From assembly GCA_041287865.1 (NCBI GenBank), contig JBGGMV010000037.1, forward strand, positions 4,614-68,613: 64,000 nt of DNA, read 5' to 3'. Origin of the DNA: Alphaproteobacteria bacterium. Lineage in GTDB: Bacteria; Pseudomonadota; Alphaproteobacteria; Micavibrionales; UBA2020. The position numbers and the translations under genes are program-made. This document shows positions 30,286 to 37,691 of the stretch, piece by piece. Each line of letters starts with the position of its first letter. Position 1 is the first letter of the stretch. The notes beneath the pieces are model-generated. The model was given only the letters and a program-made list of their open reading frames with translations, had not been told where the DNA came from and ran no database searches.

Positions 30286-30411
30286 GCCTGATTCCGTCAA
30301 TCTATATTGACATATAATTTTTCACGCGCGATGGCCCTTCGCATCTGCCGCTGGCTTATCCCCTGCGTTGGGATAAGATATTGGCAGGGTTTATCCGGGG
30401 GTATCGCCATC

Positions 30412-31386
30412 ATGCTGAAAATATCTTTTGCCGCTCTGTGCCTGTCATTGCTGATGCTGGCCCGCCCCGCTTGCGCCGAGCCGCCGGCGCAGGCCGTTAT
30501 CGGCACGGTGATGGAGGTGGAGGGGCAGGCCTGGATATCCTCTCCCGTCACCAAGACGAAAACGGCGGCGAAGGTCGAAACCCCACTGCATATCAACGAC
30601 GTCATCGACACCGGCCCCAAGTCGCGCGTCTTTATCCTCTTCATCGACAACACGCAGATCACCCTGTCGGCCAATACCAAGTTCCGCGCCGAGGACTATG
30701 TCTTCGACGAAAGCGCGCCCGCGTACAACAAGGCGCGGTATAACGTGATGAGCGGGACGTTCCAGTATCTGAGCGGCGCGCTGGGCAAGACCAAGGATCC
30801 GGATGTCGAGATCGAGACGCCCTATGGCGCGATCGGCATCCGCGGCACGAAATTCTGGGCCGGCGAAATCGAAAACGCCTATGGCGTCAACGTGCAGGAA
30901 GGCCGCGTGCGCGTGCGCAACGAGGGTGGCGAAGTCTTCGTCGACAAAGGCAAGGGCACATCGCTCAAAAGCCGCAAGCAAAAACCCTCCGCCGCCGTTC
31001 CATGGCCCGCGAAACAACTCCAGCTGATTGCGGCCACCGTCTTGCTGTCGCGGCAGGACGACGTGCTGAAGCGCGTCATGGGTTTCCAGGGCAAAAACAA
31101 CATGCTGCGCGGCCAGTTCAAGGATTTCCTGAAGATCAACGGCGGAATACCCGGCATGAACAATGTGCCCGGCAACATGGTGCCCGGCCAGATAGTCCCG
31201 GGCCAGAAGGGCGGCATGCTGTTTGATATTCCGGGAGGCACCGCGCCGGTCAAGAACAGGGCGACCGTCGCCCCCGGCACCAGAACAAAAGCCGGCAATC
31301 GCACTGCGCCTGCAGAGGCAGTGCCGTCCACGCCAAGCCCCCGGGCTCCCTCGCCCTTTAAAATGTTCAAGGTTCCGGGCCTATGA
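30412..31386 (+). CDS. Secreted FecR-domain protein with Pro/Gly-rich C-terminus
   Basis: The internal start MLKISFAALCLSLLMLARPACA-EP (signal peptide) of ORF 30307-31386 was chosen. FecR-like block: GTVMEVEGQAWISS..PLHINDVIDTGPKSRVFILFIDNTQITLSANTKF. The tail has PGNMVPGQIVPGQ repeats. Confidence 0.7.
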   Translation: MLKISFAALCLSLLMLARPACAEPPAQAVIGTVMEVEGQAWISSPVTKTKTAAKVETPLHINDVIDTGPKSRVFILFIDNTQITLSANTKFRAEDYVFDESAPAYNKARYNVMSGTFQYLSGALGKTKDPDVEIETPYGAIGIRGTKFWAGEIENAYGVNVQEGRVRVRNEGGEVFVDKGKGTSLKSRKQKPSAAVPWPAKQLQLIAATVLLSRQDDVLKRVMGFQGKNNMLRGQFKDFLKINGGIPGMNNVPGNMVPGQIVPGQKGGMLFDIPGGTAPVKNRATVAPGTRTKAGNRTAPAEAVPSTPSPRAPSPFKMFKVPGL

Positions 31387-32546
31387 CGCAGCAAAACGTC
31401 TCCCTGCGCAAATGGCTCGGCGATAAATTTTCCACGCGGTCGGGCACCCGAGCGCTGATCAGCCCGGGGATGGATTTCCTGCTGGTGGGCGGGCTTTCCT
31501 GCATCACGCTGGCGATCTATTTCCTGATCAGCGACGGTTTCAAGATCGAGGTCAAGGACGAAACCTATATCGTCGCCGCCTGGCTTTCCTTCGTCATCAA
31601 CTACCCGCATTTCGCCTATTCCTACATGCTGTTCTACAAGGGTTTCGTCGCGCGCCTCTTCGCGCCGGAAACAGAATTCTGGAGCCGCGTGAGGATGTCC
31701 ATCGCCGGGCTTTTCGTACCCGCGCTGATGCTCGCCTATTTCGTCCGCGCCTATGTGACGCAAAACCCCGAATACATCATGTGGGCGCTGTTCACGATGA
31801 TCTTTACCGTCGGCTGGCACTACGTGAAGCAGGCCTACGGCGTACTGATCACCATGTCCGTCTACCGCAATATTTTCTATGCGACCTGGGAAAAGCGGAT
31901 TTTGTGGATCAATGCCTATGCCGTCTGGGCCTATTCGTGGTGCCGCACCAACAGCACCGGCAACGACATCCCCTATCGCCATATCCAGATGAAATCCTTC
32001 AAGTTCCCGCTGGAAGTGATAGACGGCAGTTTCTATTTCGCCTGCTTCACCACCGCCGCCTGCATCGCCATCGTGCTGAACCGCTGGCTGTCGGAGAACA
32101 GGGGAATATCGGTGAACGCCGTCATCGGCTATGCCTGCGGGATTTACATGTGGGTGATGATACCCTTCATGAACATGGCTTTCTATATCCTGATCCCGAT
32201 GTTCCATTCCCTGCAATACCTGCCCTTCGTCTACAAATTCAAGAAATCGGAGCTGGTGCGGGAGCTGGAACGCCCGCTTGGCGACTACAAGCGCTCGCGC
32301 CGCAACTTCATCATCCATGCGCTGCTGTTTACCGTCACGGGCGGCGTGCTGGGGCTGTTGTTCTTTGAAACCATCCCCAACCTGCTGGACGATCATTACA
32401 GCACGAAGCTTGAATACGCGGGGCTGGACCCGCTGTTCTTCTTCTTCGCCTTTACCGTCTTCATCAACGTCCACCATTTCTTCATCGACAGCGCCTTCTG
32501 GCGCCGCGACAACAGGGACGCGCAGAAGAACCTGTTCAGGGCGTGA
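31383..32546 (+). CDS. Polytopic membrane protein with four conserved His motifs (paralogue A)
   Basis: 387 aa with about 9-10 hydrophobic helices. Motifs YPHFAYSYMLFY, GWHYVKQAYGVLIT, PMFHSLQYLPFVYKFK and NVHHFFIDSAFWRRDN. The ATG overlaps the FecR-like stop (ATGA). Family not recognised. Confidence 0.75.
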   Translation: MTQQNVSLRKWLGDKFSTRSGTRALISPGMDFLLVGGLSCITLAIYFLISDGFKIEVKDETYIVAAWLSFVINYPHFAYSYMLFYKGFVARLFAPETEFWSRVRMSIAGLFVPALMLAYFVRAYVTQNPEYIMWALFTMIFTVGWHYVKQAYGVLITMSVYRNIFYATWEKRILWINAYAVWAYSWCRTNSTGNDIPYRHIQMKSFKFPLEVIDGSFYFACFTTAACIAIVLNRWLSENRGISVNAVIGYACGIYMWVMIPFMNMAFYILIPMFHSLQYLPFVYKFKKSELVRELERPLGDYKRSRRNFIIHALLFTVTGGVLGLLFFETIPNLLDDHYSTKLEYAGLDPLFFFFAFTVFINVHHFFIDSAFWRRDNRDAQKNLFRA

Positions 32547-32550
32547 GTAA

Positions 32551-33639
32551 ATGACCGAGGCTGCCGTCCGCACCCGCGCGCTGATTTCTCCGCAGGCCGA
32601 TTTCTGGCTGCTGGGCGGGGCCTCGCTGCTCAGCTTTTTTCTTTATCTGACCGTGCTGCCCTATGTGGACCGCGAATTCCGCAAGGCGCTGCCGGTCATC
32701 ATCATCACGCTGTCCTTCGTGATGTCGTATCCGCACTTCGCCTATTCATACCTGCTGTTCTATCGCGGCTTTACCGGGCGCCTGTTTGGCGAGGGCACGG
32801 AATTTTTTAGCCGCATCCGCCATGCCCTGGCAGGCATCATCGTGCCGGCAGCGCTGGCGGCCTATTTCGCCGTGACATTCCACGAGCGTGATACATCAAT
32901 GGTGGGCTGGGGCTATTTCGTCATGCTGTTCACCGTCGGCTGGCACTACGTCAAGCAGGGCTACGGCGTGCTGATAACACTGTCGCTCTACAAGGGCGTT
33001 TTCTACGGCGTGTGGGAAAAACGCGCGCTCTGGATCAATGCCTATGCCGTCTGGCTCTGGTCATGGGCGGCGGCCAACAACGCGCTGGCGGCGCAGGTGG
33101 TGGATAAAAACTATCCGCCGGGACTTTACCCATCAATCCCCCTGCCCGACTGGGTCGTGACCTATGGCGGCGTTTTCGCCTGCATTACCACGCTCGCGGC
33201 GGCAGCCGTCGTGCTGGCGCCGTGGCTGGAAGGAGAAAAGAAAATATCGGTTAACGCCGTGGTGGGTTATGTGTCGGCTATCTACATGTGGGTGCTGATG
33301 CCGCGCATCGACATGATGTTCTATGCCATCGTACCGCTGTTCCACGGCCTTCAATACCTGCCCTTCGTCTATAAATTCAAGCGCGAGGAATTCAGGAAGA
33401 TGACAAGCGCGCGCGGTGCGGCGGCTTTCACGCTGCTGGGCCTGTTTGCGGGGGCGGTGCTGATGGAGTTTTTCCCAAAGGCGCTCGACCGCAACTTCGG
33501 CATCACGGGCCTCTCTTACGAGCCGAAATTTTACCTGACGTCCTTTATCATTTTTATCAACGTGCATCATTTCTTCATCGACGCCGCTTTCTGGCGGCGC
33601 GACAATAAAGACGTGCAGAATTACCTGTTTAAGGCTTAA
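32551..33639 (+). CDS. Polytopic membrane protein with four conserved His motifs (paralogue B)
   Basis: 362 aa, collinear with paralogue A. It carries the same motifs: YPHFAYSYLLFY, GWHYVKQGYGVLIT, PLFHGLQYLPFVYKFK and NVHHFFIDAAFWRRDN. Confidence 0.75.
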   Translation: MTEAAVRTRALISPQADFWLLGGASLLSFFLYLTVLPYVDREFRKALPVIIITLSFVMSYPHFAYSYLLFYRGFTGRLFGEGTEFFSRIRHALAGIIVPAALAAYFAVTFHERDTSMVGWGYFVMLFTVGWHYVKQGYGVLITLSLYKGVFYGVWEKRALWINAYAVWLWSWAAANNALAAQVVDKNYPPGLYPSIPLPDWVVTYGGVFACITTLAAAAVVLAPWLEGEKKISVNAVVGYVSAIYMWVLMPRIDMMFYAIVPLFHGLQYLPFVYKFKREEFRKMTSARGAAAFTLLGLFAGAVLMEFFPKALDRNFGITGLSYEPKFYLTSFIIFINVHHFFIDAAFWRRDNKDVQNYLFKA

Positions 33640-34061
33640 GAGATTTTTTTCAGCAGGGCGTCGAAATCGTAAGACAGGCCCGCCTCTTCCTTATCCGCCC
33701 AGTAGAGATCGAAGGCAACCGGCGTTTTGTCTTCGCCCGAAGGAGTCATTTCCCAGTGCCGCCATTTTTCAGGCGCAGGGTTGGCGCATTGCAGGTGGAA
33801 GAAATGACGTTCATGCACTTCGCCGCCGCGGCCCACTTTCGCTGCGTCAAAATCTTCGGCACCCAGATACTTCACCAACTGCAGGCCTTTAAGGCCGGTT
33901 TCTTCCTCGGCTTCGCGCAAAACAGCTTCCGGCAGTTCTTCTTCGGCTTCGACGGTGCCGGCGGGAACCTGCACGCCTGCCTCAGGATAATCGCGGTGGT
34001 TGAAGACCAGCAGCTTGTCGCCCAGCGTGATATAGGCAACGACTTTGCGAACGCGGCTCAT
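33636..34061 (-). CDS. NUDIX hydrolase
   Basis: 141 aa with Nudix box GTVEAEEELPEAVLREAEEETGL. Confidence 0.85.
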   Translation of the reverse strand: MSRVRKVVAYITLGDKLLVFNHRDYPEAGVQVPAGTVEAEEELPEAVLREAEEETGLKGLQLVKYLGAEDFDAAKVGRGGEVHERHFFHLQCANPAPEKWRHWEMTPSGEDKTPVAFDLYWADKEEAGLSYDFDALLKKIS

Positions 34062-36226: not shown

Positions 36227-36934
36227 ATGGAAAAACCCAAGCGAAAGCGATCGCTTACAAGGAAATTCACCATGGCCGTGCTGGGCCTGACGGCCACGGC
36301 AGCCTGCCTTTACGGCGCATGGTTCGGGGCCTTCTATGCCGGACGCGGCGATACGCTGACGCCAAGCGAGACATCCGCCGTCACCTCCATCTTCGGCGAT
36401 GAAATCAACGCCAATGCGATCCGCAAGCACGAACGCTCCGAGGCCAGCGCGACGCATCTTTTCCGCTGGGTCGACGGCATGGTGCCGCCGCCCTTCAGCC
36501 ATATCGATTTCTTCGGCCCCGATGCGCATGCGCGCGATTACACGCGCGAAGATAAACGGCTTTTCTCGCTGTTTATGCACGAAGTTACGCATGCATGGCA
36601 GGGCCAGAACTTCAACTTCTCGCGCCACAATGTGGGCCAGTATGCCTATAGCCTGAAAGAAGGCTCCAAATTCTCCGACTTCGGCACCGAGCAGCAGGCC
36701 GATATCATCAGCGATTACGCCGGCACCTTCATGCATCAATCCAGCATCGGGAAGGAGCGCAGCCCAGAAGATATATTGTTAAGGGATGTCGTCGAAACCC
36801 GCTTCCCCAGTGCGCGTGACACCCGCCTGTCGATGGAGGCGGGCCGTATGGCCGCCTTCCGCAACGAGGCCCAGCCTGTCCGCGTGGCCCAGCCCACGCC
36901 CACCCCCCCGCCCTCCATCCCCAAAACCGCCTGA
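36227..36934 (+). CDS. Membrane-anchored HExxHxxQ (DUF4157-like zincin motif) protein, paralogue 1
   Basis: 235 aa with an N-terminal TM (FTMAVLGLTATAACLYGAWFGAFYA). Motifs IFGDEINANAIRKH ... IDFFGPDAHARDY ... LFMHEVTHAWQGQN. Confidence 0.7.
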   Translation: MEKPKRKRSLTRKFTMAVLGLTATAACLYGAWFGAFYAGRGDTLTPSETSAVTSIFGDEINANAIRKHERSEASATHLFRWVDGMVPPPFSHIDFFGPDAHARDYTREDKRLFSLFMHEVTHAWQGQNFNFSRHNVGQYAYSLKEGSKFSDFGTEQQADIISDYAGTFMHQSSIGKERSPEDILLRDVVETRFPSARDTRLSMEAGRMAAFRNEAQPVRVAQPTPTPPPSIPKTA

Positions 36935-37037: not shown

Positions 37038-37691
37038 ATGGCGGAACGCCAGAAGAAATCGTTGATTCGCAAATTTGCGACAGCTGCGGCGAAAACCGTC
37101 GCCGTGGCGGCGCTCGCCTATGGCGCGTGGTTCGGCGCGTTTTACGCAGGCCGCGGCGAGACGCTGACGAAGGGCGAGACGCAGGCGGTCGAAGGCATTT
37201 TCGGCGACCAGCTGGATGCTTCCATGATCCGCAAGCACTTCCGCAACCAGAGCAGCGTCACGCATGTGATGGGCAATACGCGCGGCATGGTGATGCCGCC
37301 CTTCAGCCATATCGACTTCTTCGGGCCCGACGCGCAGTCGAAAGACTACAGCAAAGAAGGCATCGGCAAATTCGGCCTCTTCATGCATGAAGTCACGCAT
37401 ACATGGCAGGGCCAGAACCTGAAATTTTCCACGAAAGCCTTCCGCCGCTACGACTACGATTACATGCTGCGCCCCACGTCGCAGTTCAGGGATTTCGGCA
37501 CGGAACAGCAGGCGGAGATTGTCGAGAATTACGCCGAGCGCTGGATACACCGCGACGGCATCATAGAGCCGCGCACGGCGAAAGACACGCTGGTCATGAA
37601 TGTGGTCGAAAGACAATTCCCGCGCGCAAAGGCAACGCGCGACAGCGTCTGGCGCGCAAACGCGCCAAAAGCGAATACCCTCAAAACCTGA
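37038..37691 (+). CDS. Membrane-anchored HExxHxxQ (DUF4157-like zincin motif) protein, paralogue 2
   Basis: 217 aa, collinear with paralogue 1: IFGDQLDASMIRKH ... IDFFGPDAQSKDY ... LFMHEVTHTWQGQN. Confidence 0.7.
   Translation: MAERQKKSLIRKFATAAAKTVAVAALAYGAWFGAFYAGRGETLTKGETQAVEGIFGDQLDASMIRKHFRNQSSVTHVMGNTRGMVMPPFSHIDFFGPDAQSKDYSKEGIGKFGLFMHEVTHTWQGQNLKFSTKAFRRYDYDYMLRPTSQFRDFGTEQQAEIVENYAERWIHRDGIIEPRTAKDTLVMNVVERQFPRAKATRDSVWRANAPKANTLKT

Follow-up and report, generated by a model that had tools for sequence, protein, structure and literature searches.

What do two histidine-rich polytopic membrane proteins do, and why is a secreted FecR-like protein encoded with them? The question is raised by three consecutive genes of an uncultured Micavibrio-like bacterium, found in the window (the whole stretch of DNA analysed, 64 kb). 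The FecR-like gene (30412-31386, plus strand; start ATG at 30412, stop TGA at 31384-31386) encodes 324 amino acids. It is followed on the same strand by a gene for a protein of 387 amino acids, hereafter called memA (31383-32546; start ATG at 31383-31385, stop TGA at 32544-32546), and by that of a paralogue of 362 amino acids, hereafter called memB (32551-33639; start ATG at 32551). The start codon of memA overlaps the stop codon of the FecR-like gene as ATGA, and the 4 nt gtaa lie between the memA stop codon and the memB start codon. The coordinates and both junctions are as given in an earlier reading of the DNA, made from the letters alone (the sequence-only reading), and the unit is tight. 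A convergent NUDIX gene (33636-34061, minus strand) overlaps the 3′ end of memB (33639) by 4 nt, and the other neighbours encode an OYE-family flavin oxidoreductase, a P-loop protein, an MFS protein, a 155-aa ORF, Ohr, a LapA-domain protein, IHF/HU and a UbiH-like protein. Neither an ECF sigma factor nor a TonB-dependent receptor, the FecR partners already noted as missing, was found between 26.5 and 37.7 kb in the window, and L007, a syntenic locus, has none either.

A family of inner-membrane proteins with five invariant histidines

MemA and memB have 47% amino acid identity over 371 columns (E=1e-109) and both contain all four histidine motifs quoted in the sequence-only reading, which was right to call them paralogues. 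The family to which they belong comprises 1,677 clusters at 50% identity and is present in at least 549 species genomes, including those of culturable Mesorhizobium and Sphingomonas; 1,029 homologues of memA were found, and memB scored 482.6 bits against the family profile. All homologues inspected were 'hypothetical' or unnamed, without precomputed Pfam domains, and the PGAP entry for memB is hypothetical protein MEZ0260575.1. No match above threshold was obtained for either protein in Pfam-A 2025, NCBIfam 20.0 or PADLOC 2.0, or by sequence in the PDB, and Foldseek found no neighbour of the memA model in the PDB or BFVD (best TM 0.24), in agreement with the initial failure to assign a known family. 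The Peptidase M50B-like profile (PF13398) was rejected, having scored 24.2 bits with memA only (cut-off 26) and matched 2 of 40 members; the family has no conserved Glu and no HExxH. MemA and memB are members of a widespread, previously unnamed inner-membrane family with about 10 TM helices and five invariant histidines.

The AF2 model of memA is confident (pLDDT 87, pTM 0.84). Its helices, together with a positive-inside count on the sequence (26 K+R on the inferred cytoplasmic side vs 7 on the periplasmic side), give about 10 TM helices with cytoplasmic N and C termini, of which TM2, TM4 and TM5 are weakly hydrophobic, polar-lined core helices. No internal repeat was detected (hhalign probability <1%).

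Conservation was assessed in 246 sequences, reaching down to approximately 31% identity with memA. Conserved in at least 99% of these were H76, H146, H275, H364, H365, D369, Q150, Q278, Y81 and Y279, with H76, H275, Q278, Y81 and Y279 present in 246/246 and H146, Q150, D369 and W373 in 245/246. The codons concerned lie at 31608 (H76), 31818 (H146), 32205 (H275), 32472-32477 (H364-H365) and 32487 (D369), and the family motifs are PHF, WHYxKQ, FHSLQY and NVHHxxxD. Position 149, beside H146, is lysine in 232 and arginine in 11 of the 246 sequences; D31 and D369 are the only conserved acids, and no Glu or Cys is conserved across the set. All counterparts are kept in memB (H62, H132, K135, Q136, H265, Q268, H339-H340 and D344). 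Five invariant histidines from four helices are also what a metal site would be expected to look like. By this topology the histidines are placed at a relative depth of about 0.5-0.64 from the periplasmic side, i.e. from mid-membrane into the cytoplasmic half. Since they are invariant down to about 31% identity, the histidine motifs are more than chance, and their conservation in homologues, on which the sequence-only reading depended, is confirmed. With 29 memA positions at least 95% identical and every invariant residue kept in both paralogues, the pattern of conservation suggests an enzyme.

The secreted FecR-like protein and its linkage to the family

The product of the first gene is genuinely FecR-like, both in Pfam score and in predicted fold. 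The Pfam FecR profile (PF04773) matched residues 63-167 over its whole length (1-97/97; E=4.7e-12, 46.6 bits vs a cut-off of 24) and was found in all 64 homologues, and PGAP labels the identical protein MEZ0260573.1 'FecR domain-containing protein'. The AF2 model (pLDDT 82; >90 over residues 30-245) gave as top Foldseek matches the C-terminal cell-surface signalling domain (CCSSD) of PupR, 6ovk, and a putative anti-sigma factor, 4m0n/4m0h (probability 1.00, E 3e-6 to 6e-5), the match to 6ovk (E=2.8e-6) extending over 140 columns with an rmsd of 3.2; the N-terminal 62 amino acids resembled 5ix9. A signal-peptide-like segment (MLKISFAALCLSLLMLARPACA/EPP, approximately residues 1-22, as read from the sequence) precedes a beta-rich FecR-type domain (29-185), a three-helix region (200-242) and a Pro/Gly-rich tail (246-324), and the initial description as a secreted FecR-domain protein is upheld. 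The PG(N/Q)(M/I)VPGQ repeat reported for the tail is present as NVPGN-MVPGQ-IVPGQ but amounts to three loose VPG(N/Q) units, common only to the closest homologue, that of L007, and the tail is predicted to be disordered (pLDDT <50 from residue 251 on). The mature protein has no Cys or cofactor motif.

The Gly145-Thr146 bond (codons at 30844-30849, plus strand) is a candidate for self-cleavage. R144-G145-T146 is invariant among 42 FecR-like homologues, and in an hhalign alignment, not significant by itself (E=0.42), G145-T146 falls on G181-T182 of E. coli FecR. The latter is the known autoproteolytic bond, and Gly-Thr self-cleaves in both FecR and FoxR (PMC9249621). The FecR-like protein may likewise cleave itself at G145-T146.

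The protein resembles the FecR/PupR anti-sigma factors in its above-threshold PF04773 score, in the superposition of its model on the PupR CCSSD (6OVK) and BDI_1681 and in the retained Gly-Thr. Unlike FecR, PupR and FoxR, it leads from the signal-peptide-like segment of 22 residues straight into the beta domain, without the cytoplasmic anti-sigma domain and TM helix; neither DUF4880 nor any other N-terminal domain was matched in Pfam. Where PupR has its second subdomain, the three-helix region and the disordered tail are found, and in place of an adjacent ECF sigma factor or TonB-dependent transducer the partners are polytopic proteins of no known family. The protein was therefore not classified as a cell-surface-signalling anti-sigma factor, in which an N-terminal anti-sigma domain with TM helix and sigma/TonB neighbours are expected. 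Secreted LysM-FecR proteins whose genes accompany those of CHASE2 histidine kinases (COG4254; the 'BiofilmReg' operon of Burkholderia) are similar in that a periplasmic FecR-domain protein stands beside a presumed inner-membrane partner, outside the sigma/TonB paradigm (PMC5192318). In the present case, however, there is no LysM domain, and the partner, which is no kinase, carries no signalling output domain.

A FecR-like gene is paired with a memA-type gene in eight related loci (the window, L007, L005, L006, L010, L089, L090 and the P0020 contig), directly upstream of it in seven, as in the window, and the pairing persists despite rearrangements, including reversed gene order. At the other family loci examined, about 80, the pairing was absent throughout, and some relatives of the FecR-like protein, at 42-46% identity, are encoded where no family gene is present. 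The proposed coupling therefore belongs to one clade and not to the family: it recurs in the related loci but does not extend beyond them. In a sister clade (nine Micavibrio-clade loci) the family gene overlaps a gene for a polytopic protein of 535 amino acids (permease), which stands after a GldA/DrrA-like (ABC-2-type) ABC ATPase gene. Among the remaining loci, the family gene is found within an OpuAC/BPD_transp operon (L073), between FdsB-like and FdsA-like formate dehydrogenase genes (L054) and, in a second genome, adjoining an FdsA-like gene (L055). Outside the two clades the neighbourhoods consist of unrelated housekeeping genes, so the context points to no substrate.

Possible functions of memA and memB

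Members of the memA/memB family are most likely enzymes. We tentatively prefer to see in memA and memB an integral-membrane enzyme whose chemistry would be a metal-free D369-H365-H364 relay, with the FecR-like protein as an accessory in the clade of the window; as to the site itself, the odds between metal-free His-His-Asp catalysis and a metal site are about even. TM2, TM4, TM8 and TM10 would each supply an invariant histidine followed, about one turn on, by an invariant polar residue (H76...S80/Y81, H146...K149/Q150, H275...Q278/Y279 and H364-H365...D369). Lying above a basic/aromatic rim on the cytoplasmic side (R104, W373, R374, R/K375, N377, D31 and Y85), these residues could form one buried active site, entered, judging from the topology, from the cytoplasm or the inner leaflet. 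The substrate would be an anionic amphiphile, e.g. acyl-CoA, phospholipid or polyprenyl phosphate; because a conserved mid-membrane K/R stands beside H146, binding of an anion is favoured over a neighbouring metal cation. The relay would act in covalent or general-base catalysis, analogous, without homology, to the way in which ELOVL elongases and ceramide synthases use a double histidine to form an acyl-imidazole. In the window clade the enzyme would have been duplicated, with the memA-type copy translationally coupled to the secreted FecR-like protein, which probably docks on the periplasmic face of memA as a clade-specific accessory or regulator. With the active site placed towards the cytoplasm and the FecR-like protein in the periplasm, their functional link would be indirect at best. 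No homology of memA or memB to any enzyme was found in Pfam, NCBIfam, PADLOC or the PDB.

ELOVL7 binds no metal; its H150 forms an acyl-imidazole, and K124, D130, H150, H151, N177, H181 and Q211 are essential (10.1101/2020.11.11.378570). His211/His212 of CerS6 are an adjacent mid-membrane pair serving as acyl-imidazole nucleophile, also without metal (PMC11919693). The sequence-only reading had called invariant histidines on several TM helices the hallmark of metal- or haem-dependent enzymes; in view of these two metal-free clusters this is not established. MemA shares with these enzymes a mid-membrane HH pair, followed in memA by Asp at i+4, a K, D, HH, H, N, Q, Q inventory parallel to that of ELOVL7, the lack of Cys and of obvious metal-type histidine boxes and, as it appears, a basic cytoplasmic entrance, whereas it has about 10 TM helices rather than seven and no inverted 3+3 repeat. 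The parallel is an analogy of residue inventory, the fold being undetected (best TM 0.24). ELO and TLC (Lag1), which are built as a 6-TM barrel of two inverted 3-TM units, were rejected as families, with no ELO or TRAM_LAG1_CLN8 Pfam match and only the adjacent HH in common. Neither ELOVL7 nor CerS6, whose solved structures were presumably in the PDB library used, was among the top 50 Foldseek PDB matches of memA. PAP2 phosphatases/phosphotransferases were rejected as well: of their motifs KX6RP, PSGH and SRX5HX3D, memA contains only the fragments P-x-x-H-S (P272..H275-S276) and H-x3-D (H365..D369), with a conserved K/R, KX6RP and SRX5H are absent, no Pfam or Foldseek match, including to PgpB, was obtained, and the site is predicted to face the cytoplasm, in contrast to the periplasm-facing site of PAP2.

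An integral-membrane metalloenzyme, as in the sequence-only reading, in which four to five histidines and D369 would bind non-haem Fe, Zn or Cu and a lipid would be oxidised or hydrolysed, as in membrane desaturases/hydroxylases, Blh-type dioxygenases or the Zn ceramidase/PAQR group, is an alternative of nearly equal probability. It agrees with the spread of the five invariant histidines and the invariant Asp over four helices at similar inferred depth, with the polar residue one turn from each histidine, which recalls the second-shell networks of metal sites, and with conserved glycines (G36/G37, G109, G153 and G324) that permit tight packing; polytopic families with at least four invariant TM histidines are mostly metal or haem proteins. 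The di-iron desaturases/hydroxylases (SCD1, AlkB, FA2H, CrtZ/W) are likewise polytopic, lipid-facing and rich in invariant histidines towards the cytoplasmic side, but have at least eight histidines in three spaced boxes (HX3-4H, HX2-3HH and H/QX2-3HH), whereas the memA family has a single histidine on three helices and one HH pair. This superfamily was rejected: the boxes are absent from the sequence, FA_desaturase, FA_hydroxylase, BCD or related Pfam profiles were unmatched in 40 members even at E<=10, and there was no fold match. Against metal binding in general stand the conserved K/R one turn from H146, the side chains of the adjacent HH, which at about 100 degrees apart rarely bind the same ion, and the fold matches, which include no solved metallo-membrane enzyme.

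That memA and memB are a transporter or channel, whose His/Tyr/Gln-lined interior would pass a metal ion, proton or small solute, partnered by the FecR-like protein in the window clade or by the ABC ATPase/permease in the sister clade, is quite unlikely. The polytopic 10-TM architecture with its polar-lined, weakly hydrophobic TM2, TM4 and TM5, the nine sister-clade loci, the OpuAC/BPD_transp operon and the classical link of FecR domains to iron uptake signalling (PMC9249621) are in its favour. The invariant residues, however, lie at one inferred depth and trace no path across the membrane, their density is unusually high for such proteins, the internal repeat of most secondary transporters is lacking, and no transporter was matched in fold. 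A haem b- or quinone-binding redox protein, connecting the quinone pool or the cytoplasm by electron transfer with a partner in the periplasm, is very improbable: histidines from different helices could ligate haem in bis-His fashion, and H-x2/3-Q (H146..Q150, H275..Q278) with many invariant Tyr/Trp resembles quinone sites, but the histidines are at about one depth, vs two levels in di-haem electron-transfer bundles, the mature FecR-like partner has neither Cys nor a cofactor motif, cytochrome b, NarI, MsrQ and CtaA structures are unlike in fold, and the formate dehydrogenase context is found in only 2 of about 90 loci. It is extremely improbable that a signal from the periplasm or the outer membrane is picked up by the FecR-like protein and relayed across the inner membrane by memA/memB. 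The PupR-like fold, conserved self-cleavage Gly-Thr and tight linkage to memA-type genes would fit, but the signal peptide replaces the anti-sigma domain and TM helix, helices 200-242 stand where an STN-like module would be, no regulator of any kind is adjacent, memA and memB have no cytoplasmic output domain, and most family members have no FecR partner.

It is conceivable, if somewhat unlikely, that a new fold and a new class of intramembrane enzyme have memA and memB as their first members, with a five-His/Asp/Lys mid-membrane centre performing an undescribed envelope-lipid or lipid-linked modification. In Micavibrio-like bacteria this enzyme would have undergone duplication and become connected to a secreted FecR-like partner that cleaves itself. 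The family is called 'new' in the sense that the libraries searched do not place it, and known lipid chemistry in a variant form may yet lie behind it. If the reading is true, a sizeable family with a sharp catalytic-looking signature and a confidently predicted fold without solved relative has so far been missed by curated protein-family resources; working out its chemistry would add an intramembrane enzyme class, and many 'hypothetical' genes would receive a name. It would also be a new use of the FecR module, as a periplasmic arm belonging to a membrane enzyme and not to an anti-sigma factor, and the clade-specific pairing, with Gly-Thr kept and the anti-sigma domain lost, would widen the known roles of FecR domains.

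The upstream region

A putative control region of the operon (30292-30377, plus strand) was recognised from blocks conserved upstream of the L007 genes. It includes the block TTCCGTCAATC..TTGACATAT at 30292-30315 and a perfect 8-bp inverted repeat, CTTATCCC-N7-GGGATAAG, at 30355-30377, both kept in L007 though the proteins of the window and L007 are only about 65% identical. No match was found in Rfam; the region may act as an operator or promoter. TTATC-N11-GATAA occurs once in the window (64 kb), against an expectation of 0 from shuffling, and elsewhere among the fetched loci in L007/L009 only.

Operon layout and upstream region

The FecR-like gene, encoding a secreted protein of 324 amino acids, occupies 30412-31386 of the window, and its stop codon overlaps, as ATGA, the ATG of memA (31383-32546, 387 amino acids). 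The gene of the second polytopic membrane protein, memB (32551-33639, 362 amino acids), starts 4 bases past the memA stop codon, and its own stop codon overlaps a convergent NUDIX gene. The listed ORFs and the junction sequences themselves agree with the three-gene layout, overlap and 4-nt gap described in the sequence-only reading, and PGAP calls exactly the same three proteins (MEZ0260573-5), named 'FecR domain-containing protein', 'hypothetical protein' and 'hypothetical protein'. memA and memB share 47 % amino acid identity (E=1e-109), which confirms the proposed paralogy, and the four histidine motifs quoted for them were found in both. The nearest genome is that of an uncultured Micavibrio sp., in which the locus (L007/L009) is fully syntenic. 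Tandem paralogous ORFs of 235 and 217 amino acids at 36227-36934 and 37038-37691 have a hydrophobic segment at the N terminus, match nothing in Pfam and are also conserved in L007.

A conserved block containing TTGACA is present at 30292-30315, and between it and the FecR-like start lies a perfect 8-bp inverted repeat, CTTATCCC-N7-GGGATAAG (30355-30377). The repeat occurs once in the window (0 expected), and is kept in L007 (6955-6975), though not in front of the remaining FecR-mem loci; it may serve as an operator. An Rfam search of the operon leader and 10 related loci returned tRNAs only and no riboswitch.

An unplaced family of membrane proteins

The claim that memA and memB fit no known family held across Pfam-A, NCBIfam, PADLOC, the PDB (by sequence and fold) and BFVD, by all of which the family is unplaced. 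No Pfam-A or NCBIfam model matched either protein above threshold, and no weak Pfam match recurred across 40 members at E≤10. Peptidase_M50B, matched by memA below threshold, was rejected, being seen in only 2 of the 40 members and with the HExxH motif absent. The PADLOC defence models gave no match to memA or memB. Searches of the PDB with a single sequence and with a 40-sequence profile gave nothing credible, the sole match being a spurious one to a GPCR (E=0.067), and Foldseek identified no similar structure in either the PDB (best E=0.09, TM 0.24) or BFVD. Nothing was found in the literature on the family motifs, or on Micavibrio together with FecR.

An indexed search yielded 1,029 homologues. 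When 1.84 billion cluster representatives were searched exhaustively with an HMM, 1,677 clusters matched at E≤1e-3 (1,076 at E≤1e-10). All members inspected were 'hypothetical' or unnamed, none with a precomputed Pfam domain. A scan of one genome per species placed relatives in at least 549 species, including Micavibrio-like MAGs, many Mesorhizobium, Sphingomonas/Novosphingobium, Pelagibius, Pseudobdellovibrionaceae, Bacteriovoracaceae, Nevskia, Woeseiaceae and a Vicinamibacterales MAG. Family genes of Mesorhizobium, Sphingomonas and Pelagibius are immediately preceded by tRNA genes (L003 7759-7830; L043 5515-5588 and 5633-5714; L077 4361-4432). Together with a phage-type integrase near the family gene of L004 and the patchy taxonomic spread, they hint at horizontal transfer.

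Conservation was assessed in 246 full-length members, with identity to memA down to about 31 %. At least 95 % identity was found at 29 positions (memA numbering throughout). H76, Y81, H275, Q278 and Y279 are present in 246/246 members, H146, Q150, D369 and W373 in 245, H365 in 244 and H364 in 243, so that the histidines pointed out from the sequence alone are indeed conserved in homologues, all five in 243-246 of the 246. Position 149 is K or R in 243/246, and no Glu or Cys is conserved among the 246.

The AlphaFold2 model of memA (pLDDT 87.2, pTM 0.84) is made up of about ten TM helices, with a beta-hairpin on the periplasmic side (195-204) and an amphipathic helix at the C terminus. The loops on one side contain 26 K+R and those on the other 7, and the N and C termini are therefore probably cytoplasmic. 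On this topology the histidines of TM2, TM4, TM8 and TM10 would lie at a relative depth of ~0.5-0.64 from the periplasm, above a predicted conserved cytoplasmic rim of D31, Y85, R104, W373, R374, R/K375 and N377. An internal duplication was rejected, as hhalign comparison of TM1-4 with TM7-10, and of the N-half with the C-half, gave a probability of <1 %. Longer members have two extra TM helices between TM8 and TM9, and no fused soluble or Pfam domain. Mean-field DCA of 324 sequences (Meff 222) gave only gap and truncation artefacts for contacts between the His helices.

Possible chemistry of memA and memB

Invariant residues of this density and kind, retained in memA and memB alike, favour an enzyme over a scaffold or simple transporter. 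Metal-free histidine catalysis and the metal site proposed in the sequence-only reading fit the residues about equally well. A metal site would draw a histidine from each of four helices, with a polar second-shell residue behind, but H146 has a conserved cation beside it, and the family lacks the spaced His boxes that membrane di-iron enzymes typically have. These two features give metal-free catalysis a slight edge; the difference is small. In such catalysis H364-H365, with D369 one turn on, could form an Asp-His-His relay, and the mid-membrane K/R149, the conserved Gln, Asn and Tyr, the absence of any conserved Glu or Cys and the basic rim on the cytoplasmic side all fit it.

The residue inventory closely parallels that of ELOVL7, in which K124, D130, H150, H151, N177, H181 and Q211 are essential, no metal is bound and an acyl-imidazole is formed on H150 (10.1101/2020.11.11.378570). 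It also parallels that of CerS6, in which His212 activates the nucleophilic His211 (PMC11919693). The sequence and fold tests run gave no homology to ELOVL/CerS or to any metallo-membrane enzyme. Haem or quinone redox chemistry, transport and signalling are weaker explanations than either metal-free catalysis or a metal site. The novelty lies in the protein family; in its chemistry it may prove a variation on lipid enzymology that is already known.

Membrane families without a name are no rarity, and none of the long-standing questions depends on this one. It is nevertheless a good experimental target, being large, having a sharp signature and a confidently predicted fold with no relative found, occurring in culturable genera and being unusually paired with FecR.

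The FecR-like protein and gene neighbourhoods

The assignment of the first gene product as a FecR-domain protein was upheld by a Pfam FecR match well above threshold and by its fold. In the model from a 42-sequence alignment (pLDDT >90 for residues 30-245), a beta-rich domain (29-185) is followed by three helices (200-242) and a disordered tail of Pro/Gly type. Foldseek matched it with probability 1.0 to the C-terminal cell-surface-signalling domain of PupR (6OVK) and to a putative anti-sigma factor of the Bacteroides group (4M0N/4M0H). The first ~60 residues also resemble the anchoring module of an RTX adhesin (5IX9) by Foldseek, which may be compared with the protein's weak match to the LapA retention module. 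In contrast to signalling anti-sigma factors, the protein begins with a signal peptide instead of an anti-sigma domain and TM helix, and helices take the position expected for a second periplasmic subdomain. As stated earlier, no ECF sigma factor or TonB-dependent receptor lies nearby, in either the window or L007. The tail described as PG(N/Q)(M/I)VPGQ repeats does contain repeats, but only as three loose VPG(N/Q) units within the disordered region, shared with L007 alone.

Residues R144-G145-T146 (30841-30849) are invariant in 42/42 homologues, and in the profile alignment G145-T146 falls on G181-T182 of E. coli FecR, the bond at which FecR and FoxR self-cleave by N-O acyl shift (PMC9249621). 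The FecR-like protein may therefore plausibly self-cleave into two fragments.

Of 89 loci, just the window, L007 (=L009), L005 (=L011), L006 and L010 have a FecR-like ORF next to a family gene; further look-ups added L089, L090 and the P0020 contig. Several short contigs, matched by their identical lengths, appear each to carry one family and one FecR-like protein. The association thus recurs in 8 related loci and is absent from about 80 others, none of which has a FecR-like gene within 5-8 kb; it is conserved within one clade only. In 7/8 loci a FecR-like gene immediately precedes a memA-type gene, the order seen in the window. The order mem - FecR - memA-type - FecR occurs in five, and the P0020 contig has one mem-FecR pair. 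In a neighbour-joining tree, without bootstrap, the memA-type genes all fall in one group, and the second paralogue is of two kinds, memB of the window and L007 and the upstream copy elsewhere. Homologues of the FecR-like protein with 42-46 % identity adjoin unrelated genes. The FecR-like protein is most reasonably regarded as a periplasmic accessory specific to the one clade.

Upstream of the FecR-mem genes of L005, L006, L089 and L090 are genes for a patatin-like phospholipase, an SDR, a chalcone-isomerase-like protein and Ohr/OsmC, sometimes with an acetoacetate-decarboxylase-like gene, which faintly suggests a lipid-metabolism theme. The patatin/SDR/chalcone-isomerase-like cluster is absent beside the window operon, where only Ohr is found. 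In L091 (5977-8705) a FecR-like gene with no family gene has patatin, acetoacetate-decarboxylase-like and SDR genes around it; the 467-aa gene upstream of it was considered and does not belong to the family.

In a sister Micavibrio clade, genes for a GldA/DrrA-like ABC ATPase and a 535-aa polytopic protein with no Pfam or NCBIfam match precede the family gene, which overlaps the end of the 535-aa gene (L001 5450-9167; also L012-L018 and L022), and look like a second, different operon partner. The downstream 265-aa gene of this clade was rejected as a FecR analogue, its product being low-complexity and coiled-coil-like with no signal peptide.

In Mesorhizobium and elsewhere the family gene stands alone, and function could not be read from gene neighbours, which outside the two clades are unrelated (Mfd/PolA, EF-G, GDH, FDH, T2SS ATPase, Clp, cyclophilin, OpuA). 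One MAG (GCA_025934695.1; L005 and L008) has three family copies, two FecR-linked on one contig and a solo copy on another; a YhdP-like gene lies ~620 bp upstream of the solo copy, separated from it by a short ORF on the opposite strand. In L054 (4008-10144) the family gene has an FdsB-like formate dehydrogenase gene on one side and an FdsA-like one on the other, and an FdsA-like gene adjoins it in a second genome (L055). In L073 (1927-5413) it splits the genes of a betaine-type ABC transporter, separating that of the OpuAC binding protein from that of the permease.
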